Positions 16,454-58,795 of a stretch of 64,000 bases of DNA are shown here, piece by piece. Within the stretch, counting starts at the first letter, position 1. Every line of letters begins with the position of its first letter. Made by a program: the position numbers and the translations under genes. Location of the stretch: the IMG/VR virus record IMGVR_UViG_3300023184_000083, positions 1 through 64,000 of that record. The stretch is one strand, 5' to 3'. Origin of the DNA: a virus. The notes under the pieces are model-generated. The model had not been told where the DNA came from. It saw nothing but the letters and a program-made list of their open reading frames with translations, and ran no database searches.

Positions 16454-16548
16454 AGGTTCCTCCGATAGACACAGACGAAAGACTAGCATTCTTGCATGCT
16501 GTGGAAATTGCATGTAAGTTATCCACAACCACTAGGGAGGAAAGCCTA

Positions 16549-16815
16549 ATGCTCAAAGAAAAACTACTTGAACTAAACAAGCCATCCGCAGGAAAGAAGT
16601 GCACTGTGTGTACCTATTATGAAGCAATGGATACCGAGACAAAGGCCGCTTTTGCAAGCATTATGACTGGTACAACAATATCAAATCGCCGCATTGCTGT
16701 CCTGTTAACCTCAGAAGGATTGCGCGTTAGTGAAAACACTATTAACCGTGTACGCAAGACCTGCTTTGCTGATGGACTTATTGCTGGATGTTTAACTGGA
16801 GAAAATAATGTCTGA
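16549..16815 (+). CDS. Hypothetical Cys-containing HTH-like protein
   Basis: SD GGGAGG. C..C and SNRRIA...VSENTINR. Confidence 0.6.
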   Translation: MLKEKLLELNKPSAGKKCTVCTYYEAMDTETKAAFASIMTGTTISNRRIAVLLTSEGLRVSENTINRVRKTCFADGLIAGCLTGENNV

Positions 16816-17986
16816 TAAAAAAACACTTGTTGAAAAACTTACTGAAGTTTCGTCTGCTGAAGCAAAAGGCGAAATAAAGAAGAAAATGCTTGGAACTCTA
16901 GCGGACATGCTAGAGCGAAAAAATATTGACATTACGGAGATTGGTGACATCAAGCGTATCTCTCTCTATCAGTCAATGATTAAAGACGACCAAGGCGAGG
17001 CTCAGATTCATGACCTTGCGGCTATCCAGTTCTCTCCTAGTTGGGAGTCTGGTCCAGAATGGCCAGTAGTGCAACAAGGGCCTTCCGTACAACTACCAAA
17101 GTTAACGACAAAAGCATCCGAGCCAAAACAGTTCAAAACGTGCGTCGTAGTGCCTGATATACAGATAGGTTTCTACCGAAATCAAGACGGAACACTAGAA
17201 CCAACCCACGATGAAAAGGCTATTTCTATCTGTTTAGCGATGATTAAGCAGTTAAAACCAGATGTTGTGGCTTGTGTTGGGGATAACTTAGACCTTCCGG
17301 AGATGGGAAAGTACCTCACTTACCCAGCATACGCTCAAACTACTCAGGCATCTATTGACAGAGCCACTGTATTTTGTGCAGAAATGCGTGCTGCTGCCCC
17401 TAATGCCAAGATTGTTTGGCTTGCCGGAAACCATGAAGAGCGCATGCCTAAGTATCTTTTGACCAACGCCGGCGCTGCCTATGGGTTGCGTAAAGGAAAC
17501 ACCCCAGAATCCTGGCCGGTGCTATCAGTGCCATATCTTTGCCGAATGGACGAGTATGGCGTTGAATACAAGCCTGGATACCCTGCGGCAGACCTTTGGA
17601 TTAATAATAAACTCAAGATTATTCACGGTGACCGCGTTAAGTCTTCTGGCTCAACCGCACATGTATATCTCAACAATGAAAAGGCTTCGGTAATCTATGG
17701 ACACATTCACCGCATTGAGACGGCGTTTAAAACACGTGAAGACTACGATGGTGCTCGGACAATCATGGCTGCATCTCCTGGGTGTCTTGCTCGTATTGAT
17801 GGCGCTATACCTAGTACAAGAGGTGGGGTAGACCTAGACGGTCGCCCTTTGACTCGTATTGAAAACTGGCAGCAAGGTGTTGGCGTAGTTACTTACGAAG
17901 ACGACGGAGACCACAAGTTCTCCTACGAAGTCGCCACCATCTATAACGGTTGGGCAATGTTCCGTGGCAAGGAATACGTAGCATAG
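16808..17986 (+). CDS. Calcineurin-like metallophosphoesterase
   Basis: PDIQ, GDNLD, GNHE, HGD, GHIH motifs. Confidence 0.88.
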   Translation: MSDKKTLVEKLTEVSSAEAKGEIKKKMLGTLADMLERKNIDITEIGDIKRISLYQSMIKDDQGEAQIHDLAAIQFSPSWESGPEWPVVQQGPSVQLPKLTTKASEPKQFKTCVVVPDIQIGFYRNQDGTLEPTHDEKAISICLAMIKQLKPDVVACVGDNLDLPEMGKYLTYPAYAQTTQASIDRATVFCAEMRAAAPNAKIVWLAGNHEERMPKYLLTNAGAAYGLRKGNTPESWPVLSVPYLCRMDEYGVEYKPGYPAADLWINNKLKIIHGDRVKSSGSTAHVYLNNEKASVIYGHIHRIETAFKTREDYDGARTIMAASPGCLARIDGAIPSTRGGVDLDGRPLTRIENWQQGVGVVTYEDDGDHKFSYEVATIYNGWAMFRGKEYVA

Positions 17987-18742: not shown

Positions 18743-19078
18743 ATGACCGTTAATAACAATACCCAGAAAAAAGTTGCCCAACCAGAAGGATTACTGGATA
18801 TACCCAAAAAGGACTGGTTTGACCACGCAGCATGCAAAGGAAAGACCCTACTAATGTTCCCCAAAGAACATAAGGATATTACCTACATCGCACAGGCAAG
18901 AGCCATCTGCAAAGGATGCCCAGTAAGAGACCACTGTTTAGAGTACGCATTAGAGTTTCCACCTGCAGATATGCATGGAGTATGGGCAGGGCTTACATCA
19001 AGACAACTAGCCGCAGAGCAAAGACGTAGGGGAGTTAAGCCAGTAAGGCCAACCCTTAGTCAACTGTGGAGTATCTAG
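18743..19078 (+). CDS. whiB: WhiB-family transcription factor
   Basis: Four Cys (AAC...C..CPV...C) and GVWAG. Confidence 0.92.
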   Translation: MTVNNNTQKKVAQPEGLLDIPKKDWFDHAACKGKTLLMFPKEHKDITYIAQARAICKGCPVRDHCLEYALEFPPADMHGVWAGLTSRQLAAEQRRRGVKPVRPTLSQLWSI

Positions 19079-20677: not shown

Positions 20678-20987
20678 AGTTTCACTATACCGTTCAATCG
20701 GTAATTAGAGCAATGTCTTAAAGAAATAACGTTACTAACAATTTAGTGTCACTAACCCCTTTGAAGGGGGTCCGGGGGAAACTTTACGAAATTCAATTTG
20801 AATTCCGCGCAGCACAAAAAGGATTCCATTTTTCAGGAATGTTTTTTGTAGATGCTTGGCGCGCCATCTGTTGTGTCTCCGAAGTTACCATCAAAAGTCC
20901 CGAGACGCAAGTCAAGGAGAAAAATATTTTTATTCCGTGTGGGGAACAGTACCCTGTGGATAACTACTTGTAGTGTAGTCTAGTCGG

Positions 20988-25502: not shown

Positions 25503-25583
25503 GGTAGTAATCCCTTTCGGATGTGGTTGTTTATTACATGTACCAAGTTATCCGTTATTAAGAACAACGACAACCTTGGTTAG

Positions 25584-26081
25584 TTATTTTTTTTCTGCTT
25601 TTCTATCAGCCTTCTCGTCACGAATTTCCCACAAGCCTTTTTTAACTTTGCGGAATGTCTGTGACTCGGAAACAAACTTAAGTGTCGTCTGATAAGAGAA
25701 GCCAGCAATTTCTGTCAGTTGTTCTGTAGTGAACTGTTCAAACAAGTGGTCTTTAGTCCACTCCAAGAAGGCGTCGTACTTATCTGCACGTTTCGGAATC
25801 GGGGTTATGACTACGCCATCTTCAAGGGTCTCGTCACAAAACTGAGGTACCAGTTCTTCAATGATGTCTGTAGGTATCCCATACGACCCAAGGAAGCGAG
25901 AAGCCTTGCCACGACCGTCCCATACCTGTAAACAATAGAGGGCACGAACACGACTAGATATGGAGAACGTGACAGTGCGGGGCACGGAGAACACGTCTCC
26001 GTACTCTTGTTTTGCTTCGTCCCACAAAGACTTATGTGTCTCTAGTATCTCTGTATCTGTAATCATTTTCTTTAATGCCAT
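25584..26081 (-). CDS. Hypothetical protein with a possible C-terminal HTH
   Basis: Directly preceded by motif A. Confidence 0.75.
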   Translation of the reverse strand: MALKKMITDTEILETHKSLWDEAKQEYGDVFSVPRTVTFSISSRVRALYCLQVWDGRGKASRFLGSYGIPTDIIEELVPQFCDETLEDGVVITPIPKRADKYDAFLEWTKDHLFEQFTTEQLTEIAGFSYQTTLKFVSESQTFRKVKKGLWEIRDEKADRKAEKK

Positions 26082-26261
26082 ACCTTTAACCTATCCGTTA
26101 TTAACCATAATGACAACCCGCAGTATTAAATATTCGCATATTTTTTTACACTCTGGCAGCAAGTGAGGCATCATTCAACCCTTTATTAGGGCCGGCTGCA
26201 ACCTGAGCCCCGAGATAATGTTAGAATTTTAAGACAATCTTTCACCAGAACGGGACTCGTC

Positions 26262-26516
26262 ATGAAAAAGAAAAGCCAACTTCACGCACCAGTAGAAGCA
26301 ATCTCATATCTCTTGGAGCCTTCTCCGATTGTTGAAGGAGTTCAAATGGGAGCCCCGGCGGCACCGGCGGCAGAAGAGCCAAAGAAGAAGCCAAAGAAGG
26401 TTGAAGAACCAGTAGCCGAAGCAGTGGTAGAGCCAGTGGTTGAAGCAGCAGCAGAAGTTGTTGCAGAGCCAGTCGCAGAAGTAGTAGAAGCAGCAGCAGA
26501 ACCCGCTGCTGAATAA
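26262..26516 (+). CDS. Glu/Pro/Ala/Val-rich low-complexity protein
   Basis: EPVAE repeats. Followed by a terminator. Confidence 0.55.
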   Translation: MKKKSQLHAPVEAISYLLEPSPIVEGVQMGAPAAPAAEEPKKKPKKVEEPVAEAVVEPVVEAAAEVVAEPVAEVVEAAAEPAAE

Positions 26517-26524
26517 ATAAACGT

Positions 26525-26596
26525 AAAAAGGCAGGGTCTTCCGCCACCGTCGCCGCTTTCAATGAGCAGCAGACGGGGCCAAGGGCCCTGCTTTTT
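26525..26596. terminator. Bidirectional terminator hairpin with a motif B copy inside
   Basis: AAAAAGGCAGGGTCTT...AAGGGCCCTGCTTTTT between convergent genes. Confidence 0.65.
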
Positions 26597-26599
26597 GTT

Positions 26600-26860
26600 T
26601 TAGTAAGTTACGTCGCGCTCGTCAGCGCATTTTAAACAACATGCGTATTTGACCGGTACATCTTGAGAGTCAATTGCATATTCCCAGATGGGCTCATCGT
26701 CTACAAACTCGTCTACGCACCAAGCGCAGTATCCGGAGTCCCGCCCCCAGACGATTTGAATCGGGGACGCCTCAGCACAGGAGGGACACTGTTCATCTTC
26801 GTTAACCCATCCAGTCTTCTTGCAAGTGAAGCAATCTTCCAGTGCGTTCATCTCAGGCAT
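26600..26860 (-). CDS. Cys-rich hypothetical protein
   Basis: Four CxxC-type pairs. Confidence 0.6.
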   Translation of the reverse strand: MPEMNALEDCFTCKKTGWVNEDEQCPSCAEASPIQIVWGRDSGYCAWCVDEFVDDEPIWEYAIDSQDVPVKYACCLKCADERDVTY

Positions 26861-27131
26861 CGGCTTCCTCTGTGAATTCAACGACGATTTCGTCATGCAT
26901 CCCAGCGAGAGCGTTACCGTCAATGAACATGTCTTGGTCATTAGTGATTTCAAAGAAACCTTTGGTCCAGTAGCCGTTGTCGTTTAGGAAGTCGTACTTG
27001 TCGTTCCAAGTTAGGTCTACCCAGTTTTCAGGGAGCACCGATGTGTCGGGGACCGAGAAGTAATCCCATTTCAGGGGCATCTCGCCAATCATCTTGGGAT
27101 AGCGAAGTTCTGTGCAGGTGCGGTAGTTCAT
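26853..27131 (-). CDS. Hypothetical protein
   Basis: Motif A abuts the ATG. Confidence 0.75.
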   Translation of the reverse strand: MNYRTCTELRYPKMIGEMPLKWDYFSVPDTSVLPENWVDLTWNDKYDFLNDNGYWTKGFFEITNDQDMFIDGNALAGMHDEIVVEFTEEADA

Positions 27132-27140
27132 ACATTCAAC

Positions 27141-27383
27141 CTAACCGTTATTAGGGTCAATGACAACCTCTGAGTGGTCAATGATTGCATCAGCGAGCCA
27201 GTTGCAGATGTCACGGTCAGAGCCTTCCCATTCTTCAAACTCTTTTACGACGCGAGCCCAGCCTTCGTTGGTGAGTTCAAGTTCGTCGTTCCAGAATACT
27301 TCTGGTTTTTCCCAGAACAGAACCATCAGTTCGTCGTCTGGGTTCATACCCTCAACGAGGTGGCGTAGTTGTGAGACTTTCAT
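27141..27383 (-). CDS. Hypothetical protein
   Basis: C-terminus EVVIDPNNG is encoded by a motif A copy. Confidence 0.65.
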   Translation of the reverse strand: MKVSQLRHLVEGMNPDDELMVLFWEKPEVFWNDELELTNEGWARVVKEFEEWEGSDRDICNWLADAIIDHSEVVIDPNNG

Positions 27384-27577
27384 TCAGCCTGCTCCCACGC
27401 CATGTAGTCGCCGTCCATGTCACGACAGATGCCAGTGACCCAGAAAGGTTTAGGGTGTGGAGCCTCAGGGTCTTCCCCGATTGCTTCACGAACCTTAATG
27501 AGTGCTTTAGTCATGGCTTCACCATCTGTGAGGGCGTCTACATCAACGCCAACTTGTACTTGTACACGGTAAGTCAT
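27380..27577 (-). CDS. Hypothetical protein
   Basis: Overlapping stop/start with neighbours. Confidence 0.6.
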   Translation of the reverse strand: MTYRVQVQVGVDVDALTDGEAMTKALIKVREAIGEDPEAPHPKPFWVTGICRDMDGDYMAWEQAE

Positions 27578-27834
27578 TACTGCTCCATAAATTCTAGTGA
27601 TTCAACCAAGTCAATAAACCATTCCTTGTTTACGGAATAGACGTCACGAGACTCCTCAATAGCCTTTAGAAGACCTTTCGCTTCATCATCAGTGAAGTAG
27701 TAGAAAGTTTCTAGGTCTGATGGAGTGTCAAACTCCTCAGGTTGAAACGAGATGAAAACATCGTTGTAGCCGTCAGGTGAGTCTGTCCAAGTAACGGCAC
27801 ACTCAACCCCTTTATATTTATCTGAAATACTCAT
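27577..27834 (-). CDS. Hypothetical protein
   Basis: Motif A abuts the ATG. Confidence 0.75.
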   Translation of the reverse strand: MSISDKYKGVECAVTWTDSPDGYNDVFISFQPEEFDTPSDLETFYYFTDDEAKGLLKAIEESRDVYSVNKEWFIDLVESLEFMEQ

Positions 27835-27843
27835 ACCTTCAAG

Positions 27844-28305
27844 TTATCCCTTATTACCCTTAATGACAACCTCAGTGAAGTAATAAAAAAGATTGCTTGT
27901 GAAGATGGTGCGATATCCGTTCCATGCGTCGTCAGTCCCGATGCATAGTTCTCCGATTGTCTTCAACTCTTCGTCGGTGGCTTCGGTAGTAACCCACTTG
28001 AGCCAACCCATCAGACGTTCTTCTGTCGTGTCGTACTCAAGTTCTAGAAGAACCTCAGCCTCGTCGCGCAGAGCCCCGGGAGAATATGACACAGATGTAA
28101 AGCGTGTTACTTCTCCGTACAGAGTGTCTTCCATGATTTTGAGAACGCTCTTGCCTGTGCGAACTGCCATCTGAGATATTTCAGAGTCGCTCGCAACATC
28201 TAAAAAATGTGCGTCGTTTTCATCTAGTTCAGATAAATCTACGACATAGCAGTAATCCAGCGGGACTACCGTCCCAGACTGGGAGTCAATAATAACTTTC
28301 GTCAT
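27844..28305 (-). CDS. Hypothetical protein
   Basis: ATGA overlap with the upstream gene. C-terminus EVVIKGNKG is encoded by motif A. Confidence 0.65.
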   Translation of the reverse strand: MTKVIIDSQSGTVVPLDYCYVVDLSELDENDAHFLDVASDSEISQMAVRTGKSVLKIMEDTLYGEVTRFTSVSYSPGALRDEAEVLLELEYDTTEERLMGWLKWVTTEATDEELKTIGELCIGTDDAWNGYRTIFTSNLFYYFTEVVIKGNKG

Positions 28306-28919
28306 TTCGCCATCTCCTCTGCCCAAAACTTTAGAAGCAGTGCTTCCACCTTGTCTTGCTCTTGTTCGTTCCAGTTTTCGTGCTCTGCTTCTTGCTCATC
28401 GTAGTCAAATGGGTTTTCACACGGTTCGTACATCGCCTCAAAGACGATGGAGCCGTTACGAAAGACATGGTATCCAGCAAAGAAGCCAGCCTCTTCATCG
28501 TAAGAGAACTGAAAGGACAGTTCAGGAAACAACTCTGAGATTTTTAGCCATGCCTTATCGGCTGGTCCCCATGCAGTAGTGAAGTTTATGAGCGCAGTGC
28601 CATCGGCACGGTCAAGAAGTTCAGTGTCGCAGTCGCCCCACTTGGTGCCCCAAGTGTCGTACTCCCACTCGTACCAGTCCGAGTAACCGAACTTAGCGAT
28701 GTTCTCTTCCTTTTGTTTTAGCCATGTCTCGTGCTCAGGGTTATCTGAAGACATTGACCCTGAAAGGATTTTGAGTTCCTCAGGGCAAGGCAAAAGAGAC
28801 GGGATGATGTTTAGTTTTTCATTACCGTTTTCGTCTTTTACAGTAGAGGCAGTTAGGAACCTTTGTAGTTCCTGCTCGTCTCCAGTGATTGACGCTGATG
28901 TATGAACCCAGTTGGGCAT
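28302..28919 (-). CDS. DUF1281/YubB ferredoxin-like domain protein
   Basis: MPNW...WY.W...WGTKW...F.TAW.P...FP.L.F. Confidence 0.8.
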   Translation of the reverse strand: MPNWVHTSASITGDEQELQRFLTASTVKDENGNEKLNIIPSLLPCPEELKILSGSMSSDNPEHETWLKQKEENIAKFGYSDWYEWEYDTWGTKWGDCDTELLDRADGTALINFTTAWGPADKAWLKISELFPELSFQFSYDEEAGFFAGYHVFRNGSIVFEAMYEPCENPFDYDEQEAEHENWNEQEQDKVEALLLKFWAEEMAK

Positions 28920-28994
28920 GATTACCTTCTTTCGGTGATAGTAAATCCGATAAGTAAAACTCTATCCGTTATTAGGGATAGTGACAACCTTACT

Positions 28995-29315
28995 CTAAAG
29001 TTTTTGTTCACTCCAGTGAGTAGCAAATGTCTTTGCGTAGGTGTCGGCGATGTGTGCTGCCGGCAGTCCCGCGACTGGGTCGCTGTGAAGAGTTACATTC
29101 TTGAACTCTGTCCATCGCTCGCCACTACCTGAAACAGGAACGACAAGGAAGTCCAAGTGTCCATAACGACGGCGTGTATCTACAATGCGCACATCAACGA
29201 CGAGTCCCGTTTCTTCTACGGACGCCGTGAGACCTTTGTAAATCTCATAGTCAATTTTCCCGTCACTTGTAAGTGCGTAACGGCTTTTATCTGGTTTGGG
29301 TGTATCTACCAACAT
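28995..29315 (-). CDS. Hypothetical protein
   Basis: V.IVD....YG..D.LV.PV.GSGE.W. Degenerate motif A upstream. Confidence 0.7.
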   Translation of the reverse strand: MLVDTPKPDKSRYALTSDGKIDYEIYKGLTASVEETGLVVDVRIVDTRRRYGHLDFLVVPVSGSGERWTEFKNVTLHSDPVAGLPAAHIADTYAKTFATHWSEQKL

Positions 29316-29411
29316 GGTGAATAACTTTCTTTGTAGGGGGTTTGTTTTCAGCGTAGCGGTTATTATCCATAATCACAACGCCAAACTTGGTCACACTCAG
29401 AGCGACGGGGC

Positions 29412-29669
29412 CTACTCGGCTGGGAAACACCCTGCTATGAAATAGTGTCCGTTTTCGTCCTTGCTAATGCGCCACTCTAAATGTGAGTAGCGATAGCGAA
29501 GGCGGTGGACAACTGAACTAGCACTCACGTAAGTCTTGTATTCTCCGTCTTTGAAACGGTGGGATACCGCCCACGTCCCTTTCGGTTGTTCTGAAAGTTC
29601 GTTTACTAGGTTGCGGATACGATATCCGGGACTAGCGACTGCTGGGGTGGGGACGATTTCTAATGCCAT
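29412..29669 (-). CDS. Hypothetical protein
   Basis: 85-aa ORF in the leftward operon. Confidence 0.6.
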   Translation of the reverse strand: MALEIVPTPAVASPGYRIRNLVNELSEQPKGTWAVSHRFKDGEYKTYVSASSVVHRLRYRYSHLEWRISKDENGHYFIAGCFPAE

Positions 29670-29673
29670 GTTG

Positions 29674-30141
29674 TTACCAAGAACTTTGATATGTAAAGTC
29701 GTAGTCGGTTGGGACGTTCACTAGTGCCTCATTTATCATGAGCACCGTATCTTCTAGGTCACCGAAGTAGAACTCGTCATACTGTGTGCTTCCAAAAAAG
29801 AAACCACTAGCGGTTGGTAGTAACTCATCAGCGAGCCCGTGGTCGGCGAGAACCTTCTGACAGATGTCACGAAGTGCAATTAGATGGTCACGAGACACAT
29901 AAGCCTCACGACAATCGTCTACGCCGTCTTGGCAGTTATCTACAAACCATTGGTGAACTTGGTTTGACTTGCGCCATTGTCCGACCTTGATTTGTATTTG
30001 TGCGCTAGGCATCTCTTTGGTCATGAACTTCTGTGCGCCAGTTGCTTCCACAACTTTTTCAAACAGTTCTGTTCGCTCTTTTCCGAGCCAATCGCCAGAA
30101 CTTGTGTAGCACTTGGCATAGAGGTATTGGTCTAATCCCAT
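29674..30141 (-). CDS. Conserved hypothetical phage protein
   Basis: MGLD.YL...WRK.N..H.WF...LLPT.SGFFFG...Y.SSW. SD AGGAG. Confidence 0.8.
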   Translation of the reverse strand: MGLDQYLYAKCYTSSGDWLGKERTELFEKVVEATGAQKFMTKEMPSAQIQIKVGQWRKSNQVHQWFVDNCQDGVDDCREAYVSRDHLIALRDICQKVLADHGLADELLPTASGFFFGSTQYDEFYFGDLEDTVLMINEALVNVPTDYDFTYQSSW

Positions 30142-30413
30142 AGTGGGTGTACTCCTTTGTTAGTAGTGATAGAAACTCTATCCGTTATTAGCAATAGACA
30201 CAACCTTTGTTTTGTATTTCCTTTCCGCCACCGTCACTGCTTGAGAAACACCATACACCTCTTGCGTTTTGTGATTTCACAAATGGGTGTGTCATGGTTA
30301 TTTGAACCTTGCAAATAGGGGTAAAAGGGTCTAAAAATAATCTTTGGGGGCGAGTTGTCATTGTTCCTAATAACGGATAACTTGAAGGTATCGCAAGTGT
30401 TAGGAGAAACACA

Positions 30414-30803
30414 ATGTCCACAATCCAAGAAAAGGTAGCCATTCAGTACCTCGCCGCAAAGCAGGCAGTTGAAATGGCAGATAAAGCAATGGCAACAGCC
30501 AAGCAGTTGCTTGAAGAGACCTACGCCGAAATGGGCGTGACTGATGTCGTCATTGACGGGGTTAAGGTCGCAATCGTTGAGGCAACTCGTCGCAACTTTG
30601 ATACAGAGGCTCTAAAGGGTCTCATTGTCGCTACAGCGTTTGAGGCAGTCACTAAGACCTCGGTTGAGCCGAAGGCATTTGATAAGGCTATTAAGGCTGG
30701 CACAATCGCCCCCGAAGTAGAAGCACAAGTCGTTACAGGCACATCGTACACTCGCATTACAACCCTAGAGGTTGAAGCGGTTGCTGTCGCTGTCGCCTCT
30801 TAG
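30414..30803 (+). CDS. Hypothetical protein
   Basis: Motif A plus SD AGGAG. Confidence 0.75.
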   Translation: MSTIQEKVAIQYLAAKQAVEMADKAMATAKQLLEETYAEMGVTDVVIDGVKVAIVEATRRNFDTEALKGLIVATAFEAVTKTSVEPKAFDKAIKAGTIAPEVEAQVVTGTSYTRITTLEVEAVAVAVAS

Positions 30804-30815
30804 GGAAGGAACCCA

Positions 30816-31226
30816 ATGGAACAACACGAAATCGCAGAACTCGCTAAGAGGGTAGAGGGCGCACTTGCTCACGACATGATGTTAGAGGACTCGTACGCTT
30901 TCGGACTTTCCGACGGTGCCGAAGTCCCGGTGATGATGGCAGAGTGTGCAGATGTCTACGACTTACTAGACGACCCGATGACCCCGATGACTCTTGACCT
31001 GTTCGGTCATGTGGCTATCGTTTCGCACGGTTGGGCGCAAGACATGACTGACCACAAAGCACCGCCAGTTCGTGTACGCCTACTTGTTGCTGTGTCTCGC
31101 AACGGGGCTCGCTCGTCGGTTGTTCGCTTCATGGACGATACTGACCATGTTCTCTATGACGAACAAGGTGAAGGTAACGGTACTCTCGCTGACGCAATCC
31201 TCGCTCTCTGTGAAAACGGGGAGTAG
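30816..31226 (+). CDS. Hypothetical protein, paralogue of 35369..35788
   Basis: GWA...V.L...F.D...G.G.LA.AI shared. Confidence 0.75.
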   Translation: MEQHEIAELAKRVEGALAHDMMLEDSYAFGLSDGAEVPVMMAECADVYDLLDDPMTPMTLDLFGHVAIVSHGWAQDMTDHKAPPVRVRLLVAVSRNGARSSVVRFMDDTDHVLYDEQGEGNGTLADAILALCENGE

Positions 31227-31264
31227 AGGTTGTCATTGTCGCTAATAAAGGATAACTTGAAGGT

Positions 31265-31612
31265 ATGACATCACAAGTAGAAGCAGTAGCAGATAGCAAC
31301 GCAAAGACGGAGCCTGAGTATCAGGTTATTTGCGAGGGTCTGCCAATGGAATACGGCGAGGACGAGTTTGTCCGAGTTCGTAGATACCACAAAATCCGTG
31401 AACGAGTGAAGGGCGACACCTACGCCACTTGGGAAGTCTTGTGTGAACGAGACCACTACAGCAAAGACGAACTCGTTCTCCACCCCTTCATCGTGTGGAC
31501 ACTTGTAGCCCGCCCCGATGGTTGGTCGTTCGCTGGTGGAGAGTATTACAAAACTTACGAAGAGGCTCTAAAAAACTACAAGAAAAGGACTCTAGGTGCA
31601 ACTGATATCTGA
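31265..31612 (+). CDS. Hypothetical protein
   Basis: Motif A abuts the ATG. Confidence 0.75.
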   Translation: MTSQVEAVADSNAKTEPEYQVICEGLPMEYGEDEFVRVRRYHKIRERVKGDTYATWEVLCERDHYSKDELVLHPFIVWTLVARPDGWSFAGGEYYKTYEEALKNYKKRTLGATDI

Positions 31613-31827
31613 ACTCATAGCAAAAGAAGTTGAGAAACTGGCTGCTGCCGGGGCTGGCGTGACCTGCACCTACTGTGCCAAGCCGTTCCATGATGACGAA
31701 GGCGACTGGAACCAAGTGTTCCTAACAACTGGCACGCTCACCGAGTGGGTGTGTTACGAGTGTTACGAGGAGTGAAATCTTTTTTACCGAGGTTGTCATT
31801 GCTACTAATAAAGGATACATTGAAGGT

Positions 31828-32196
31828 ATGAACAAAGCACTTATTATTCCAGCAAAAGGTACGCCATACACGACTATGGTTGCTCACCCCGAAGGCGACT
31901 TCATCAACAAGACCGTAGGTGGTTGGTTTGACTGTGTTCGCTCTGAGACATTTCATGGCTATGTAAACGATGAAGGACTACTTATCGGTCTTGAACTCAA
32001 CCCCGTTGCCTCTATCATGTTCGGACAGATACTCGCAGGCGACTGCATCGTGTTCGGCTCGTGTAACGCACAGGGCGAGTATGACGGTTACGAACACACC
32101 ATTGACCCCTCTGTTGTTGTAATGGCTAATCACTTTAACTTCCTATGGGAGACACAGCCTGAAAACTTCCGTGTCGGCATGAAGGAGACAATCTAA
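31828..32196 (+). CDS. DUF3846-like protein
   Basis: VGGW...YVNDEGL..GL..N..AS...L.GD. Confidence 0.75.
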   Translation: MNKALIIPAKGTPYTTMVAHPEGDFINKTVGGWFDCVRSETFHGYVNDEGLLIGLELNPVASIMFGQILAGDCIVFGSCNAQGEYDGYEHTIDPSVVVMANHFNFLWETQPENFRVGMKETI

Positions 32197-32647: not shown

Positions 32648-32648
32648 T

Positions 32649-43342: not shown

Positions 43343-43393
43343 TTTTTTTGAATAAAGGTTGCAATTACCCTTAATAACAGATAACTTGAAGGT

Positions 43394-43597
43394 ATGAAAG
43401 AAGCAGTAAAGCAAGTAGTCCAAGCCGCAGAAGCCCTTACTCAGGCACTCAAGGCGCTAAACCCCGAAGGGGCTCTCCCTTCCTACTGGAACCCACACCC
43501 AACGGGCTGGTCGGACACGGCGCTCCCTTGGTCGGACACGCTGGTCTCCAACGCTCTCCACTACGCATCAGCGCTCACAACGGAAGAGGAAGAGTGA
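43394..43597 (+). CDS. Hypothetical protein
   Basis: Motif A abuts the ATG. Confidence 0.65.
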   Translation: MKEAVKQVVQAAEALTQALKALNPEGALPSYWNPHPTGWSDTALPWSDTLVSNALHYASALTTEEEE

Positions 43598-43679
43598 CGG
43601 CGGTCTAGTGCCGAGAGTTGCAATAAGTGACGGGTGCGGTGCTATGCTCGTTAGATAGATTTAACCGAGAGGCAAAGAT

Positions 43680-44705
43680 ATGGCACACGAACTTGAGATG
43701 ACCAGCAGCGGGGCTGCAAAGATAGCATATGCAGACCGAGAGGTTCCTTGGCACAGACTGGGGAAGCCGATGAAAGGCTTGCAGACAGCAGAGGCGATGC
43801 TAGAAGCCGCCGAAGCCGACTTTGATGTTGTGCTCACAAAGGTTGCATCAGTAGACGAAAATGGGAACTTCATTCGGAACCCAGATGGTAGTCCCGTCAT
43901 TGTTGAAGACAGCCGTGCAACGGTCAGGGTTAATCAAGATGGAACGTTTGATGGTTTAGCCACAGTTGGAACACGTTTCGTTGTTCAGCAAAACAAGGAG
44001 TGTTTAGAGCGAGCATTGTCTATCGTTGGCGCATCCAAGGGCGATGCTCTCGTAGACACTTGCGGTGTACTCAACGGCGGTCGTGAGTTCTTCGCCTGCC
44101 TTGACCTCGGTGCTTTGGTTATTGACCCCAAGGGTGTGAACGACAAGATTGAGCGATACATCCTCGTTCGCAACGGTCATGACGGCAAGACAGCAATCAC
44201 CTACGCAAACACGTCTATCCGTGCCGTTTGCAAGAACACCGTTATCTCCGGTCTCGGGGCCTCGTCACGTGTGTTCACAGCCAGACACACTCGTAATGCC
44301 GAATCAGCACTGGAAGACGCACACACGGTATTAAACATCTCCGTTGAATGGGCTTTAGAGTTTCAAAAAATGGCAGAGCAGATGCTTTCTATTCCCGTAT
44401 TGACAGGTTCACCACAACTTGATAAACTGATTTTCGGGATATTCCCCGAGAAGCCAAGCGAGACAGAACGTCAACGCAAGAACCGAGAAGAAGTACACCT
44501 TGCAGTTCGTGGCTTGTTCCTCAGCAATAAAAATGCTGGTGGTTACGGGTTTAACGGTTGGTCGGCATACAATGCAGTTGGTGAATACCTTGACCACTAC
44601 CGAGAAGCCCCGGTTAAAGATAGAGCAATGTCTTCAATGGACCTCAACTCGTGGGTGTCAAAGAAGAAGTTGGAAGCGCAAAGCCGTATCCTTGCGCTCG
44701 CATAA
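43680..44705 (+). CDS. DUF932-family protein
   Basis: MAHE...PWH.LG...VG.RF..QN...NGHDG...IRAVC.NT...RHT...W.AYNAV.EY.DH. Confidence 0.88.
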   Translation: MAHELEMTSSGAAKIAYADREVPWHRLGKPMKGLQTAEAMLEAAEADFDVVLTKVASVDENGNFIRNPDGSPVIVEDSRATVRVNQDGTFDGLATVGTRFVVQQNKECLERALSIVGASKGDALVDTCGVLNGGREFFACLDLGALVIDPKGVNDKIERYILVRNGHDGKTAITYANTSIRAVCKNTVISGLGASSRVFTARHTRNAESALEDAHTVLNISVEWALEFQKMAEQMLSIPVLTGSPQLDKLIFGIFPEKPSETERQRKNREEVHLAVRGLFLSNKNAGGYGFNGWSAYNAVGEYLDHYREAPVKDRAMSSMDLNSWVSKKKLEAQSRILALA

Positions 44706-44749
44706 CGGGCTCAAGTGGGACAATGGTATTGTCCTAGTAAGGAGGGGTT

Positions 44750-45178
44750 ATGGAACCCGATGATGAAGATTTTTTCTTTGGATTAGAAAATAACGTTCCA
44801 CCCGAAGTGTTGGCTGAGTTTATTAGCACCTTCATGAGTTCGGCATCCCTCGCTGAAGGGCTTTACCGCAGGGCGTTTTGCGATGTTGTTGCTGGTCGCA
44901 TTTACCACGACTTTGGTGCAGAAGGTCTTTGTGACCTGATGATTTCACTGGATAAACGGGGCTCGTGGATTTCAGACATTCTGTTTGAGTCGCCAGACCT
45001 AGAGGACATTGCCTTCAATAAGTACGGCGTATACGATGACGACATCACCATTAAGGCACGCAATACAAAAGCAATGCAAGAGATGAACGTCAAGATGTGG
45101 CGGTTACGTAAGAAGTATGCCAAGTTGATTGTTGATGAAATCATTGCCGGCGAATCTGGAGTCCCGAAGCCGCAATGA
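44750..45178 (+). CDS. Hypothetical protein
   Basis: SD AAGGAGG. Confidence 0.7.
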   Translation: MEPDDEDFFFGLENNVPPEVLAEFISTFMSSASLAEGLYRRAFCDVVAGRIYHDFGAEGLCDLMISLDKRGSWISDILFESPDLEDIAFNKYGVYDDDITIKARNTKAMQEMNVKMWRLRKKYAKLIVDEIIAGESGVPKPQ

Positions 45179-45459
45179 GCATTCGCTGGTGGATACATCA
45201 AGATTGGGTTCCCCCATTTAGCAAGCGGGTGGAAGAGGAGATGAAGAACTTCCTCAGTCACGAGTGGGAGAAGCGGTACATAACCAGCAACCCAAAGGCT
45301 ACTTTTGTCCCTTTCTACACAGCCTGCAAGAACTGCACCGCCGTTACTAGCGATGAGTCCCAGAAGTATCCGTGCGGGACTATCCCGCCAAAGGTTTCTT
45401 ACTCGGAGTACGCCTCACGAATGAAAGAACTTGGCAGAGAGTCAGAACTCCCCAAATAG
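45175..45459 (+). CDS. Hypothetical protein sharing C..C...YPCG..PP with 40088..40264
   Basis: Motif similarity. Terminator at 45463-45488. Confidence 0.6.
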   Translation: MSIRWWIHQDWVPPFSKRVEEEMKNFLSHEWEKRYITSNPKATFVPFYTACKNCTAVTSDESQKYPCGTIPPKVSYSEYASRMKELGRESELPK

Positions 45460-45497
45460 AAAAGCCAGCCCCCATTACGAGGCTGGCTCCCTATCGG

Positions 45498-45704
45498 TTA
45501 GACCGTTTGTAGTGGGATATGTACTGGAAGTCCCCATGTCTCGCACCAAATGTTTGCGAGGTTTTGAGCCTGAGTCTCGTCTAGGCAGGGGATTGTGTAG
45601 GTGAAGGAGTCTGATGCGTCTCCCGTGGGGGATGATACCCACACTTCTACTTGCTGTCCAATCGCTTGAACATGTACTGGTGTGCCTTTATATGCTGTTT
45701 TCAT
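45498..45704 (-). CDS. Hypothetical protein
   Basis: Motif A abuts the ATG. Confidence 0.7.
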   Translation of the reverse strand: MKTAYKGTPVHVQAIGQQVEVWVSSPTGDASDSFTYTIPCLDETQAQNLANIWCETWGLPVHIPLQTV

Positions 45705-45741
45705 ATCTTCAATCTATCCCTTATTAAGGGTAATTGCAACC

Positions 45742-46086
45742 TTATACAAGAGGATATTTTCGCCAACCGATGGGCATTCCATCCTCATCATCGGGCGCAT
45801 CATCGTCCCAGAAGGGAATCTCTCCAAGAAGTCCCGCTGCACGTGCAATATCTCCAAAGTTGGTGGAGCGATTTTCGTTAGTAAGCAAGTCTTCTAGGTT
45901 CTGCATCCAAGATGCTGCCCAAAACTCCTGCGAGTGAAACTTCATAGCGATAGGGAGTAGTTCACGCAGGCTCGCACGGAGTTGTCCAATTTGTTCTTCC
46001 TGATGGTGACTGTGTTGAATCCACCATTTTAGAGCCTTGCGTTGCTCTGCTGATTTTTCTGCTGGTGGCAGGTCAGGCATTTCCAT
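45742..46086 (-). CDS. Hypothetical protein
   Basis: 114-aa ORF with SD GGAG. Confidence 0.6.
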   Translation of the reverse strand: MEMPDLPPAEKSAEQRKALKWWIQHSHHQEEQIGQLRASLRELLPIAMKFHSQEFWAASWMQNLEDLLTNENRSTNFGDIARAAGLLGEIPFWDDDAPDDEDGMPIGWRKYPLV

Positions 46087-46366
46087 TATTTACTCCGTAG
46101 TATTTGTCGTGGTTTGTCATGAGTGTTTCCATGGTCTCTTTGCAAACGGGGCATCTCGGCGGCCGCCAGTCCAATGCGTGTGATGGCACTTCTCCGCACT
46201 GGCAGGAAAGTATTACTTCAACACCCCATGTGTCAGCAAGAGACTTGCGACTCACTTACGCTTCTTTTTAATTACATAGCCATTTGCTTTGAGGTCTTTG
46301 ATAATCATTTCAGGCATGCCGTGCCATAAAGGGATACCGCAACGAGTCAGTGAGCGAGCAATAATG

Positions 46367-46597
46367 TCAAGTTTTTTCTTTGAATGTAGAATCATTACGC
46401 CATTGTATTCCATTTTTTGCGTGAACACAACCGTAAGCAAGTGCTCCGAAGATGAATCCATACTGCTTGGTGACGATTGCGTAGACCATCCACAAGCACT
46501 CGTTAGTGAAAGCAATGCCCCAAGCCCACCAGTGCTTCTTTCCGACAAGCCAGAGTCCCGTGACACCCAGACCACTAAGTAGCCACGACCACCACAT
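46367..46597 (-). CDS. PnuC-like small membrane protein
   Basis: W.W.LS..G..GL...G.K..W.W......LW..YA....QYGF. Confidence 0.6.
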   Translation of the reverse strand: MWWSWLLSGLGVTGLWLVGKKHWWAWGIAFTNECLWMVYAIVTKQYGFIFGALAYGCVHAKNGIQWRNDSTFKEKT

Positions 46598-47298
46598 CAA
46601 GGGCAGACTTTGCCGTTTACTACCCACGCTTCGTAGGTGATTGGCATTATTTCAGCAAAAACATTCTCAATCTCATGGACATACTGACGGATGTCGTACT
46701 GAGCAGAGTTATCCGTACGCAGAGACAGAAAGTTCAGTAGCGACCTCGCATTGACTGTCCAGTAAAACTCGGTGTACATGCCGACAGGGAGCACTGTTCT
46801 AGCCAGTTCTTTTGCTACGCCCATCTGAAGCAGGGATAGATAAGAGGCATAAGCATGCTCGTTGGCATCTTTAATGACCTTGATAGCCGACTCAGCCAAC
46901 TCAGAATCAGTTTCATACATAGGTTCAAAGGAGTAAGAACCAGGCTTGCCAATCTGTGTTCGGACATCTTTGTACTCTGGAACAAAAAACGTATTCGGGG
47001 CCTCTGAATAACGTGCGGAGAATTCGTTGAAGGAGCCGATGCGGTGACGAAACCATTCACGGGCTACAAAGATTGGACACTTCACATGAAAGCGAAAGGC
47101 GTTGTGCTCAAACGGAGTTCCATGACGCTCACGCATCAAGAAGTTAATTAGGCCGATACCTGACTCGTCAAGTTCCTCAGATTTTTTACCAAAGGACACC
47201 CGTGCAGAGTTGACCACGGAAAGGTCGTCTGCTAAACAGCCGTCAAGCCTAATAAAACCATTACCAATATCTGCGTAGAAATGTTCGTAACTCTTCAT
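46597..47298 (-). CDS. thyX: Flavin-dependent thymidylate synthase
   Basis: H.TPFEH, RHRIGSFNEFSARY, ELAR.VLP. Start ATG 47298 lies 6 nt after TATGCT. Confidence 0.95.
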   Translation of the reverse strand: MKSYEHFYADIGNGFIRLDGCLADDLSVVNSARVSFGKKSEELDESGIGLINFLMRERHGTPFEHNAFRFHVKCPIFVAREWFRHRIGSFNEFSARYSEAPNTFFVPEYKDVRTQIGKPGSYSFEPMYETDSELAESAIKVIKDANEHAYASYLSLLQMGVAKELARTVLPVGMYTEFYWTVNARSLLNFLSLRTDNSAQYDIRQYVHEIENVFAEIMPITYEAWVVNGKVCP

Positions 47299-47317
47299 GA
47301 GAAGAGCATAGCGAATA

Positions 47318-48379
47318 TCAGCCTTTCCCGCTAGAGGTACTCCAGTTTTTAATGCCATCATCCGTGTTATCCATAAGGTATTTAGCGACCTTCAGGTTGC
47401 AGTTAACATTGAGTAGAGCAGTCATATCGCCGTACTTTGACTTGCACACATCTGATGTGACTGCCTTCCAAGAACTATTGATTTGTACCAGCCCATAGTC
47501 TCGTGAACCATTGGCGTTCGGCTTTGACACAATCTTTTCGTTGCAGCGGGACTCTCTCCATGCGATGTAAGAAAACTGCTCAACAGGAAGCCCATAAAAG
47601 CGAAACTTTGGTTCCCACTTGGAGCATCGCTTTGATTTGTCGCTTGGCACACCCGTGAGATATGATGGAAGCATCGGAACATTTGCTGTGTGAATGTTGT
47701 GCTTCTTTAGATAAGCAAGATGTGCTCCTCGTGTTTTCATCCCGTAATGACCGTCAGATGTTATTCGGAGATACTTTTGCAAGTCGCCCACCATGACACT
47801 CTTCTCATTGAAAGAGTAAGGCATGTCAAGAATCAGAGCAGGGTTGTAGTAGTAGGTATTGGGTCTGCCACCAGCGCAATGCAATGCTCCCCATCCATTG
47901 AAACCAACTGGGTCTTTTTTGTGTAAGTAGGTTGCAGGCACTCCGTGGATTCTGGCCCATTCGGGGTCCCGGGTTATCGTCGTTGAATAACCAAGCGTTG
48001 ACACACGCTGAGCAACTATGATTTGTTCTTCCTTGGTTGCTTTGTCAGGAGTAGGAGCAAACTCTTTTCCTCCCCAGTTTTCCCAAGTACCTTGATAGAT
48101 GCCTAAACCACCTGCAAACTTGCCACCGTTTTGCCAGTTGCTATTTGTTTCACACCTAGCGAGTTTGTCCCAGAAGATTCCGAACGCACGGGGCTTGTCA
48201 GTCCGGGGGAGATTGTTTTTGTCAGCAAGAGTTGGAACCGTCTTGGCTTCTTGTGCGGGTGCAACTGAAGCAGGCACCTCGGGCGATGCTTTACTTTTGC
48301 TCACCCCCAACAACATGAATATTGTTAGTAATGGCAATAAAGATAAAGCGGTAGCCCGAAGGCGCAAGTGGTTTCTCAA
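47318..48379 (-). CDS. Secreted dual muralytic enzyme: Rpf-like transglycosylase, peptidoglycan-binding-like linker and SLT/lysozyme-like domain
   Basis: Signal peptide. WDKLARCE...GGL....TW...A...EQI.VA. LQ..L....DG.YG..T. IAWRESR...DYGLVQIN. Confidence 0.85.
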   Translation of the reverse strand: MRNHLRLRATALSLLPLLTIFMLLGVSKSKASPEVPASVAPAQEAKTVPTLADKNNLPRTDKPRAFGIFWDKLARCETNSNWQNGGKFAGGLGIYQGTWENWGGKEFAPTPDKATKEEQIIVAQRVSTLGYSTTITRDPEWARIHGVPATYLHKKDPVGFNGWGALHCAGGRPNTYYYNPALILDMPYSFNEKSVMVGDLQKYLRITSDGHYGMKTRGAHLAYLKKHNIHTANVPMLPSYLTGVPSDKSKRCSKWEPKFRFYGLPVEQFSYIAWRESRCNEKIVSKPNANGSRDYGLVQINSSWKAVTSDVCKSKYGDMTALLNVNCNLKVAKYLMDNTDDGIKNWSTSSGKG

Positions 48380-48467
48380 GGGTGACTCCTGTGTTAGGCG
48401 GATAGGTCAACAGGCTTAGTAGTAGCGCCTGCCTATGTCATAACAGTTGTTTTAACTGGGTAATACA

Positions 48468-48495
48468 AGTTTATCAAACGGTCACTCGTTGTCAA
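48468..48495 (-). promoter_or_regulatory. SigA-type promoter of the Rpf gene
   Basis: TTGACA-16 nt-TAAACT on the minus strand. Confidence 0.6.
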
Positions 48496-48574
48496 CCACT
48501 TGGAAATGCTTGGTACATAAGGGGTTTATGAAAGCACCTCGGGAAACCCTTGTGCGGTAAGGGTTTAAAAACGG

Positions 48575-48826
48575 CTATTCGCCAATAATTTTATCCATAT
48601 ATTCATTGATGTCTGCAAGGCGCAATGTAGCCGTGATTAGCCCATTTTCATCAGTATTAAGTACGTTCAGGTCTAAACATCCGAGGAGATGCATAGCCAT
48701 GACCTTAAAGTCTCCAATAAGTTCTTCGTCAGGAATACCTTTAACATCGTCAGGGTCGGTCATGTTGAGCAACATCTCCGCCATGTGATTGATGATTCCG
48801 ATGCGTGTTTCAAATGTGTCAGCCAT
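48575..48826 (-). CDS. Hypothetical protein
   Basis: TAGATT lies 7 nt before ATG 48826. Confidence 0.6.
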   Translation of the reverse strand: MADTFETRIGIINHMAEMLLNMTDPDDVKGIPDEELIGDFKVMAMHLLGCLDLNVLNTDENGLITATLRLADINEYMDKIIGE

Positions 48827-48895
48827 GTGTTGCAATCTATCAGACGGGCATGTAGAGTTCAACCTCGGGAAACTAAAAGAGATAGAGGTAACTAG

Positions 48896-49333
48896 ATGTC
48901 ACAATCCCAGTCAACAATCATCGGTAACGTAACGCGGGACCCAGAACTCCAGTACACAACTGGTGGAACCGCAAAGTTGTCATTCAGCATTGCCAGCAAC
49001 TACGGCTTCAAGGATGCCGCAGGAGAATGGCAGGAGAAGGTTTCATACTTCAACGTTGTCGCATGGCGCTTTCTTGCAGAGGACACAGCCGCTGTCCTTG
49101 AAAAGGGCGTAGGAGTAATGGTCTCAGGTCGCTTGGAACAGCGTTCATGGGAGGACAAGGAAGGCGAGAAGCGCACCACTGTTGAACTCATCGCTGACTC
49201 TATTGGTATCCAAACTCGTTCAATTGAGTCATTTGCTCGTAAAGCACGCAAAGACGGAGATGCCGGTAAGTCTTCAGCCCCGAAGCGCACTGCACCAGCA
49301 GCAGCAATGGCACCCGAGGACGAGCCTTTCTGA
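48896..49333 (+). CDS. ssb: Single-stranded DNA-binding protein
   Basis: GNVTRDPEL.YT..G...V.GRL.QRSWE...EDEPF acidic tail. Confidence 0.95.
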   Translation: MSQSQSTIIGNVTRDPELQYTTGGTAKLSFSIASNYGFKDAAGEWQEKVSYFNVVAWRFLAEDTAAVLEKGVGVMVSGRLEQRSWEDKEGEKRTTVELIADSIGIQTRSIESFARKARKDGDAGKSSAPKRTAPAAAMAPEDEPF

Positions 49334-49404
49334 GCAAGCCCTAGAGGCAGTGTCCGAACATAGCCTCAAAGATAGAGAGCCCATCCCATTAGGGGTGGGC
49401 TTTT

Positions 49405-49689
49405 CTATTCCCCCTGAACCCAATCCCATGTGCCATCCATTGAAAGGATGACATCGTCAGGCTGACGACAGTCGTTAAGTGTCATGTTAGGGTTAAGTGA
49501 AGCAAAGTCATCTGCGTTCCATGTGAAGTTAAAGTTAAGGTGCACATCGCACTCGGGCTTATCACCCATCTCTGAAACTTTTATGACTCCGATTGTTAGA
49601 GCAGAGAGAATACATCCCCAAAATGCGAAGCGAACTGTAGAACGAATTGCGAAGTAGATAGGTGAGTGAGTGGTCTTTTTGTTCTTCAT
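49405..49689 (-). CDS. Small membrane-anchored protein
   Basis: Motif A before ATG 49689. One TM segment. Confidence 0.65.
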   Translation of the reverse strand: MKNKKTTHSPIYFAIRSTVRFAFWGCILSALTIGVIKVSEMGDKPECDVHLNFNFTWNADDFASLNPNMTLNDCRQPDDVILSMDGTWDWVQGE

Positions 49690-49740
49690 GTGTATCACTG
49701 TATCCGTTATTAGTAACAATTACAACATTAGGTAAGAAAA

Positions 49741-58365: not shown

Positions 58366-58369
58366 GATA

Positions 58370-58795
58370 ACTATTGTAAGTGAAGGGTGATGTGTGATGA
58401 GACACTATCGCATTGGCATTCATTGAGTGAGACACTAAGGTCATCATGAGGTGGCATTAGGGGTCATGAGAGAGCCTCTGAGAGCCTCTAAGAGGACATG
58501 GGTCATGATGTGGTCTCTCTATGGGGTGCTGTCAAGGGGTGCCCTATGAGGCGAGGGGTAGGCATGCCTAACAGAACAGGTGTTCGTGATAGGTCAGCCT
58601 AACAGAACAGGTGTTCGGCCTGTGGATAAAGGGTGTGGATAACCACTAAAAGTGGTCAAAAGGGGTCAAAAACCACTATCCATAGTCATTTCTCGGGGCT
58701 TTTTCCACAGGGGTCTCAGGGCTGTGGGGAGCAACATACTAATAAATGAAGTTTCCCCACTCTTCAAATAGATTTATCCAACCCCTTCGTATGCG
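58370..58795. promoter_or_regulatory. Repeat-rich control or origin-like region with LexA boxes, IdeR-like sites and DnaA boxes
   Basis: 21-bp direct repeat at 58566-86 and 58597-617. TGTGGATAA at 58621 and 58634. TTTTCCACA at 58701. TGAGACACTA twice, GAGAGCCTCT twice, GGTCAAAA twice. Confidence 0.7.

Follow-up and report, generated by a model that had tools for sequence, protein, structure and literature searches.

Host-type DnaA boxes and a parS site at selected promoters of a lake actinobacteriophage as candidate inputs from the host chromosome cycle

Record IMGVR_UViG_3300023184_000083 of IMG/VR is a viral contig of 77,724 nt, rated linear, and its bases 1-64000 constitute the window analysed here. 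The source is apparently a large, lytic lake phage of an actinobacterial host, placed to phylum only. Consensus sites of the type recognised by bacterial chromosome-cycle proteins, especially DnaA boxes and a parS site, are located in this window just upstream of phage promoters. We propose that host DnaA, probably ParB, and perhaps LexA feed into selected phage promoters and into one gene-free hub, and assign this reading a probability of about 0.6. An earlier reading of the same DNA (hereafter the original prediction) had noticed these sites and regarded them as a candidate decoy or chromosome-mimicry system directed at host master proteins.

All nine perfect DnaA boxes (TTATCCACA) listed in the original prediction are present in the window, where 0.52 would be expected and the maximum in 100 shuffles was two. 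On a mechanical map of open reading frames (ORFs), seven of them are intergenic or at gene boundaries, and never more than two perfect boxes are adjacent. The remaining 13.7 kb of the contig contain no perfect box. An unbiased 9-mer scan of the contig also found TGTGGATAA to be over-represented (9 vs 0.67), ranking it below the words of the promoter cassette described in the next paragraph and below CCGCCACCG, GCCGGCGA and GCCGGGGCT. The predicted parS was equally borne out. It is an exact 16-mer at 32649-32664, for which simple arithmetic gives an expectation of ~1e-5 per 64 kb, and it is the sole match even when up to three mismatches are allowed. Different site types are indeed packed edge to edge, as had been described.

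In the early region (25538..49728), one promoter cassette of sigma-70 type, with the consensus AGGTTGTCATTGTnnCTAATAAnGGATAnnTTGAAGGTATG and the layout TTGnnn, 17 nt, TAnnnT, 6 nt, ATG, is present in 27 strong copies on both strands. The 27 copies score 31-52 bits, compared with a shuffled maximum of 7, and a consensus promoter scan describes them as TTGTCA-17-TAGATT-type. Their spacer has a conserved CTAATAA. In 17 of the 27 the ATG is placed exactly 38 nt from the cassette start, and the others have short leaders with a ribosome site. Since the ATG falls at the predicted transcription start, most cassette transcripts are predicted to be leaderless. Promoters of a phage RNA polymerase were considered and rejected, as the cassette matches sigma-70 geometry exactly. 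Three cassettes, P32675, P35997 and P43356, carry the host-type sites in the stretch upstream of their -35 region, here termed the slot. Each of the three is preceded by a module that combines a gene stop with the motif CTTTCCGCCACCGTC and a GC hairpin; they are thus the first promoters past a terminator-like element.

The geometry of these slots becomes evident across the phage family. The family set comprises 112 family loci together with the contig under study (G000), in total 1.66 Mb with some redundancy; for the promoter slots, the 70 nt preceding each of 265 distinct cassettes were analysed. Perfect DnaA boxes number 126 in this set vs 13 for the reversed control, some relatives having 6-10 per 20 kb, and a DnaA-type box is found at 38 of the 265 cassettes. 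Of the boxes that face the promoter (n=57), 32 leave a gap of 15-17 nt to the -35 region and 20 a gap of 27-29 nt; these two positions are one 12-bp pitch apart, with centres near -57 and -69. Boxes of the opposite orientation (n=11, distinct cassettes) are scattered in position. An unbiased 8-mer scan of the slots placed the DnaA box first (41 vs 0.82) and parS second (11 vs 0.46). The variants TGTGGAAAA and TGTGGACAA, which fit the relaxed consensus TTWTNCACA, also occur in slots and arrays. Additionally, parS-like sites with at most two mismatches lie upstream of 16 distinct promoters, most commonly with a gap of 11-12 nt to the -35 region. The composite of TTAGG-N4-CCTAA and parS is kept in nine members (G000, L033, L035, L038, L039, L044, L046, L048 and L114), and five scrambled controls of this composite gave zero matches. 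The DnaA and parS sites are consensus host-type sites far above chance that recur in relatives, and the fixed promoter geometry of both argues for operators regulating phage transcription and against scattered sinks.

The same box pair is also found in bacterial genomes. Of 401 sampled Actinobacteriota genomes, 36 contain the exact arrangement TGTGGATAA-NNN-TGTGGATAA, and none contains the reversed control. In five genomes that were checked, the pair is situated 200-300 bp downstream of dnaA, in the oriC region. Eight genomes of one small order (L129-L136; 41-52% GC in the fetched loci) have a single pair before nrdR, where a NrdR box with a TATACT -10 element is followed by the DnaA pair and then by the nrdR start; this suggests that nrdR is under joint NrdR and DnaA control in these organisms. 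The spacers ACC and GTC are common to phages and actinobacterial sites. Owing to its occurrence at both oriC and nrdR, the pair is taken to serve low-GC actinobacteria as an origin element as well as a transcription operator, which says nothing of the order to which the phage host belongs. The palindrome TTAGGCATGCCTAA is absent from 13 genomes of the order carrying the nrdR box pair.

Table 1. Positions of the host-type sites, their promoters and the host marker genes in the window
Feature	Position	Strand	Remarks
Perfect DnaA box	16519..16527	+	ATG 22 nt downstream, with GGGAGG ribosome site
WhiB-family genes	18743..19078; second copy 50170-50529	+ (first copy)	Host marker
Perfect DnaA box	20955..20963	-	In the 446 nt preceding the phage replication operon
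CTACTTGTAGTGTAG	20964..20978	+	NrdR-like site of the original prediction
14-bp palindrome TTAGGCATACCTAA	32634..32647		Fused to parS; composite kept in relatives
Perfect parS	32649..32664		Ends 12 nt before GTTG of the P32675 -35 region
Promoter cassette P32675	32675..32715	+	TTGTCA-17-TACATT; ATG 32713 at predicted +1; leaderless 56-aa gene
TTTTCCACA, then perfect DnaA boxes 35961 and 35973	35949..35981	-	12-bp pitch; last box ends 17 nt before GTTG of P35997
Promoter cassette P35997	35997..36037	+	Leaderless 89-aa KTSC-domain gene (36035-36304)
SOS-like AAAC-N4-GTTC	40357..40368		One mismatch; upstream of P40451; weak, possibly chance
SOS-box-like CGAACATACGTTCT	43309..43322		~35 nt upstream of the P43356 -35 region
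Degenerate box TGTTGATAA and perfect TGTGGATAA	43322..43342	-	12-bp pitch; perfect box ends 15 nt before GTTG of P43356
Promoter cassette P43356	43356..43396	+	Leaderless 67-aa gene (43394-43597), then a DUF932 gene
Two tandem 31-bp units	58559..58617	+	Each a TAGG-N4-CCTAA palindrome and SOS-like AGAACAGGTGTTCG
Two perfect DnaA boxes	58621..58642	-	13-bp pitch
Perfect DnaA box	60435..60443	-	Inside ORF 60068-60673
Perfect DnaA box	63476..63484	-	Inside ORF 62925-63560, with a weak DnaB_2/DnaD-like match (E 0.0026)

In the mechanism proposed here, the phage would have furnished its own control regions with operator sites of host type. The early region would be driven by the ~27 copies of one sigma-70-type cassette, mostly leaderless, and a minority of them, mainly the first ones after a terminator-like module, would possess an upstream slot for a host chromosome-cycle protein. 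Two slot types may be distinguished: in one, a DnaA-box pair faces the promoter at the two positions given above; in the other, parS is fused to the 14-bp palindrome and the centre is near -55. These slots would be bound by host DnaA, probably by host ParB and, with less certainty, by LexA, and binding would raise or lower expression of the downstream units depending on the replication, segregation or damage state of the host, either direction being conceivable. One further DnaA box lies upstream of the phage's own operon of initiator and helicase loader, and the 58.5-kb hub would be a separate element, either a control region for a 1654-aa gene or a replication origin. A bolder extension can be offered only tentatively: the slot may be a plug-in socket in which DnaA pairs, the parS-palindrome composite, CRP-like sites and others are swapped among relatives, so that host ParB would regulate the transcription of a lytic phage and gene units would be timed by host replication and segregation.

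Several findings weigh against the proposal that host proteins feed into these promoters. DnaA boxes are found at only 2 of the 27 window cassettes and parS at 1 of 27, and two of the perfect DnaA boxes lie within ORFs. The host consensus itself comes from sampled Actinobacteriota genomes, the host being placed only to phylum. GAAC-N4-GTTC occurs three times in the window vs 1.16 expected and reached at least three in 11 of 100 shuffles, which is not significant alone; SOS-like boxes are present in only 2 of the 265 promoter slots and, unlike usual LexA operators, do not overlap core promoters. The identity of the decorated promoter varies among relatives, the 58.5-kb cassette is not at the syntenic place in the closest long relative, and in relatives at 55% primase identity boxes are at chance level and parS is zero. 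The host-site feature is hence dispensable and lineage-specific. Conservation, which the original prediction had left to be examined, holds for the DnaA boxes and the parS composite, which recur in relatives, but not at the 55% distance. Likewise, enrichment over chance holds for DnaA boxes and parS and is not significant for GAAC-N4-GTTC within the window, with TAGG-N4-CCTA being borderline (3 vs 0.41 expected; at least three in 3 of 100 shuffles). The copies of GAAC-N4-GTTC at 58574 and 58605 and two of the TAGG-N4-CCTA copies all fall within one 31-bp tandem duplication and are not independent, as they belong to a single duplicated unit.

Promoter slots are gained and lost quickly, as can be judged from the varying decoration among relatives and from the replacement of the module at 43.25-43.64 kb. 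In four sequencing runs that cover 43-63 kb with ~95% identical relatives, the module at 43252-43637, consisting of promoter and small gene, is broken or replaced, which fits cassette-level exchange. In the ~95% identical lake strains of runs X6 and X7, contigs were seen to break at or skip exactly 43252-43637.

The LexA part of the proposal relies on the SOS-like boxes. CGAACATACGTTCT and AGAACAGGTGTTCG fit the actinobacterial/Firmicutes LexA consensus TCGAAC-N4-GTTCGA. The SOS boxes of the original prediction are all present, including the one-mismatch site at 40357, and across the family CGAAC-N4-GTTCG is enriched (20 vs a mean of 4.2 for permuted half-sites), but within the window the count stays in the range of chance given above. 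The family copies are mainly organised as tandem arrays in hubs beside DnaA-box arrays (L078), with more arrays in L103 and L070. The centre of the box at 43309 is ~78 nt upstream of the start, and one L078 box abuts TTGACA. Two other labels given to window sites could not be maintained. The TAGG-N4-CCTAA palindromes do exist, but their assignment to IdeR/DtxR fails, as the 19-bp TTAGGTTAGGCTAACCTAA-type iron box has no match at up to three mismatches and the palindrome measures 14 bp, its 4-nt centre included. The word CTACTTGTAG is present at 20964, and its resemblance to a NrdR box is that of a half-site at most. Compared with the 16-bp reference palindrome acaCwAtATaTwGtgt, usually tandem, and with the boxes in low-GC actinobacterial genomes, only the half-site-like word TGTAGTG is shared with the L129-L136 NrdR boxes, and there is no second box. 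In relatives (L042, L052), the word ACTTGTAGTGT is found again beside parS and beside DnaA boxes.

Two of the DnaA boxes outside the slots lie near genes of regulation or replication. The box at 16519 is in a divergent region beside a winged-helix (MarR-like) gene (16016-16528, -), with a TGTGGAAAT half-match 20 nt upstream. The box at 20955 precedes an operon in which the gene of an O-like initiator (20315-20677, -) adjoins that of a helicase loader (19833-20318, -). The hub at 58366-58795 is a gene-free region of 430 nt upstream of the 1654-aa gene (53401-58365, -), in which a consensus promoter scan found no promoter. It is composed of repeats, with two copies each of TGAGACACTA, GGGTCATGA and the 31-bp unit, a pair of DnaA boxes and an inverted TTTTCCACA; the DnaA boxes and the TTTTCCACA at 58701-58709 form a 13-nt inverted repeat. 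As for the 1654-aa ORF itself, no Pfam family was matched and a search with an N-terminal pattern returned no relatives; compared with L002, its C-terminal half is 91-97% conserved and its N-terminal half has diverged.

In L078, a locus of the complete relative G413, a hub of similar build packs five SOS-like boxes and at least nine DnaA-type boxes into 270 nt and also has a TGAGACA inverted repeat. The nine perfect boxes of G413 are all confined to a 7.5-kb stretch, and its hub is situated 2-3 kb from the minimum of the cumulative GC skew (104 kb), whose amplitude is small. Such an arrangement would suit an origin or a master control region. Searches against PHROG with the genes near the L078 hub found no replication function, and the only viral contigs to match a pattern of the hub composite were unrelated phages.

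The strongest alternative, compatible with the promoter-slot reading, is that the DnaA boxes outside the slots, at the 58.5-kb hub and possibly in the 20.9-kb region, mark one or more replication origins of the phage. Host DnaA would then assist in DNA opening or in loading of the phage primase-helicase, with the SOS-like repeats serving as iterons or for damage control. A hub that is gene-free, lacks a consensus promoter and is made of direct and inverted repeats is in keeping with this, as are the recurrence of SOS-like and DnaA-box arrays together in distant relatives (L078; SOS-like arrays in L103 and L070), the clustering of boxes near the skew minimum of G413, and the adjacency of box 20955 to the initiator and loader genes. 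However, the hub has just two perfect boxes and one relaxed box with no clear AT-rich unwinding element, the window GC skew shows no turn at 58.5 kb, the G413 skew amplitude is small, and the hub is missing from the syntenic site mentioned above. Moreover, the phage has its own initiator, and DnaA need not be required. An origin function is thus a possibility worth keeping in mind, though one that we consider doubtful.

A second alternative concerns the proteins that bind. Neither DnaA nor ParB domains were found in the 77.7-kb contig (~49% of the genome), which extends to the whole contig the original observation that no dnaA or parB gene lies in the window. The DnaA C-terminal domain (domain IV) was likewise not found in a set of 14 relatives, of which seven are at least 90% complete. 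Every relative that is at least 69% complete encodes a 250-325-aa protein with a ParB_N domain, adjoining a RuvC-like gene. This protein matches ParB_N only: it has GNHQLE in place of GERRxR, no match to HTH_ParB was obtained, and its structure model (mean pLDDT 55) is confident only in the N-terminal domain. The presence of parS does not track this gene, as six ParB_N-encoding genomes are without parS and G414 has four. ParA-like P-loop proteins (AAA_31) are encoded only in G001, G002 and G004, all of them without parS, ~77-85 kb from the ParB_N gene, and a search of nine genomes yielded no tyrosine integrase. The original prediction had allowed for phage dnaA or parB genes elsewhere in the genome; no DnaA DNA-binding domain came to light in the contig or in the 14 relatives, and a ParB_N gene does exist in relatives, but it is non-canonical, is accompanied by no integrase and does not go with parS. 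The simplest binders would thus be the host's own DnaA and ParB.

The competing view is that a phage DNA-binding protein recognises TGTGGATAA, parS or TTAGG-N4-CCTAA, the likeness to host sites being convergence or mimicry. Candidates would be a helix-turn-helix (HTH) protein, such as those encoded in the window at 16016-16528 and 52252-52866, or, for the palindromes, the family ParB_N protein that is so regularly encoded. The TTAGG palindrome lends this some appeal, having no known host-site match and a half-site that starts with TGTT, as does the parS half-site. Nevertheless, none of the 14 relatives has DnaA domain IV, the array variants TGTGGAAAA and TGTGGACAA are variants of the DnaA consensus itself, and the pitch and spacers (ACC, GTC) of the pairs equal those of actinobacterial oriC and nrdR sites; together with the poor correspondence between parS and a ParB_N protein lacking GERRxR and an HTH_ParB match, this makes a phage-encoded binder unlikely.

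The decoy originally proposed, in which the sites soak up DnaA, ParB or LexA or mimic the chromosome and so disturb host initiation, segregation and SOS response, fares worse still. Perfect boxes would be high-affinity sites multiplied by phage replication, some relatives have dense clusters of at least nine boxes, and no phage dnaA was found; DnaA titration as a side effect of phage replication is therefore plausible. As a purpose of the sites, however, a sink needs neither distance nor orientation, and 52 of the 57 promoter-facing boxes are at two exact positions. The boxes and parS stand at a fixed distance and in one orientation before promoters, the window gathers at most two perfect boxes together and has one parS, and the site content turns over among close relatives, with none beyond chance at 55% primase identity. 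Decoy or mimicry is accordingly judged improbable and gives way to the promoter-input reading. The weakest alternative is an extrachromosomal prophage with parS as partition centromere and the DnaA boxes as a plasmid-type origin, for which the perfect parS, the ParB_N gene of relatives and the P1-type origins, which combine DnaA boxes with iterons, could be cited, but which is highly improbable given the lack of a tyrosine integrase in nine genomes, a ParA-like P-loop that is confined to relatives without parS and encoded at a distance from their ParB_N gene, a non-canonical ParB_N protein, a single-copy parS in a promoter slot, and complete relatives with direct terminal repeats and a lytic-style layout.

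The contig is rated ~49% complete by CheckV, the other half of the genome not being in it, and the full phage genome is estimated at ~155 kb, so that the window represents about half. Its GC content is 45%. Phage genes on the contig include those for a minor tail protein, a primase-helicase, a SNF2 helicase and a transglycosylase with a Rpf-like domain, in addition to the O-like replication initiator adjoining the helicase loader and two tRNAs. The actinobacterial host implied in the original prediction is supported by the two WhiB genes (also placed at 18815-19006 and 50197-50409, within the limits of Table 1), on which the host assignment is based, WhiB being a published marker for recognising actinophages (PMC10914622). 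A cyanobacterial host, with which a halogenase gene and the 45% GC would fit, was rejected, being outweighed by these two genes. A WhiB search of genome contigs gave a weak match in a metagenome-assembled genome of Microthrixaceae, which served only as an entry for sampling the phylum.

The phage sequence is present in lake and freshwater metagenomes from several studies, and no RNA runs were listed as containing it. A related helicase gene is found in 386 viral contigs. The complete relatives measure 128-158 kb and have direct terminal repeats, and a transglycosylase search found relatives at 97% and 86%. Near and distant DNA searches of a phage collection with the 41-49 kb region and the 58.5-kb hub gave no match.

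Some additional observations were made on the window and its relatives. The motif CTTTCCGCCACCGTCnCTnCTT has 11 copies (20598, 21096, 22082, 23087, 26540, 30224, 32538, 35855, 38107, 40334 and 43214), always on the + strand and just past the stops of genes of either strand; it occurs in relatives too, G413 having five forward copies and one reverse. The 8-mer GCCGGCGA / TCGCCGGC is strongly over-represented with 16 window copies (e.g. 19890, 21134, 33298, 45146 and 60679; reverse copies at 15095-53699), the majority of them within genes, and may be a modification- or restriction-related target. GGCCGGCGA has 5 copies vs 0.14 expected. A tryptophan halogenase gene (window 1490-3028, E 1e-98) resides in a segment of lower GC (38%) at the left contig end. 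In G414, a complete genome of 148 kb, three perfect and one single-mismatch parS are found within 16 kb (114844-130470); a ParA-like gene was not found there, and the non-canonical ParB_N protein is encoded ~70 kb from the parS sites.

If the proposal is true, a phage family would read the host chromosome cycle directly via DnaA and ParB. This would be useful in slow-growing lake actinobacteria, in which the cell state at infection is widely variable. The transcription-factor role of DnaA would be extended to phage genomes, and the first chromosomal-type parS serving as a promoter operator on a lytic phage would be at hand. In the collection of papers searched, none joined 'DnaA boxes' and 'actinobacteriophage'.

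DnaA is well established as a transcription factor at promoter-proximal boxes, for instance at dnaA, nrdAB and uvrB of E. coli, in the regulons of B. subtilis and Caulobacter, and in the stimulation of lambda pR (PMC6015884, PMC3985674). Such DnaA-regulated promoters share with the phage the same consensus 9-mers at defined positions relative to a sigma-70-type promoter, and E. coli uvrB combines LexA and DnaA sites in one control region, as the P43356 slot with its SOS-like box may do. The nrdR gene of low-GC actinobacteria offers a native example of the box pair, although the nrdR pair is located downstream of the -10 element, whereas the phage pair is upstream of the -35 region. Compared with the known DnaA regulons, the promoters here are those of a phage, in repeated leaderless cassettes with pairs of 12-bp pitch at an activator-like position. 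With the LexA boxes of Actinobacteria and Firmicutes the consensus is shared, but the phage sites lie upstream of core promoters and in tandem iteron-like arrays. oriC and datA resemble the phage in their consensus DnaA boxes, in the identical 12-bp pair of the actinobacterial dnaA-dnaN region and in the hubs of relatives with at least nine boxes; they differ in that the window nowhere groups more than two perfect boxes and yielded neither an unwinding element nor an IHF-type site, and in that most boxes of the family are locked to promoters. ParABS systems share the exact parS, but no canonical ParB is found in the contig or relatives, and no ParA together with parS. In the IncP plasmid RK2, the ParB-family protein KorB acts at its operator OB (with KorA at OA) as a promoter-proximal regulator, and OB abuts OA at some promoters. 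The phage is alike in having a ParB-type palindrome just upstream of -35 that abuts a second short palindrome, a likeness to be taken as a lead; it differs in that its site is the chromosomal parS consensus, no KorB- or KorA-like gene was identified, and the ParB_N protein of relatives is without the CTP-binding GERRxR. Finally, the PeSL-type cassettes of T4-like phages are likewise near-identical host-type promoters, each heading a small early gene. In the lake phage, gene content also changes at the cassette borders, and what it would add to this design is an upstream slot with sites for host regulators.

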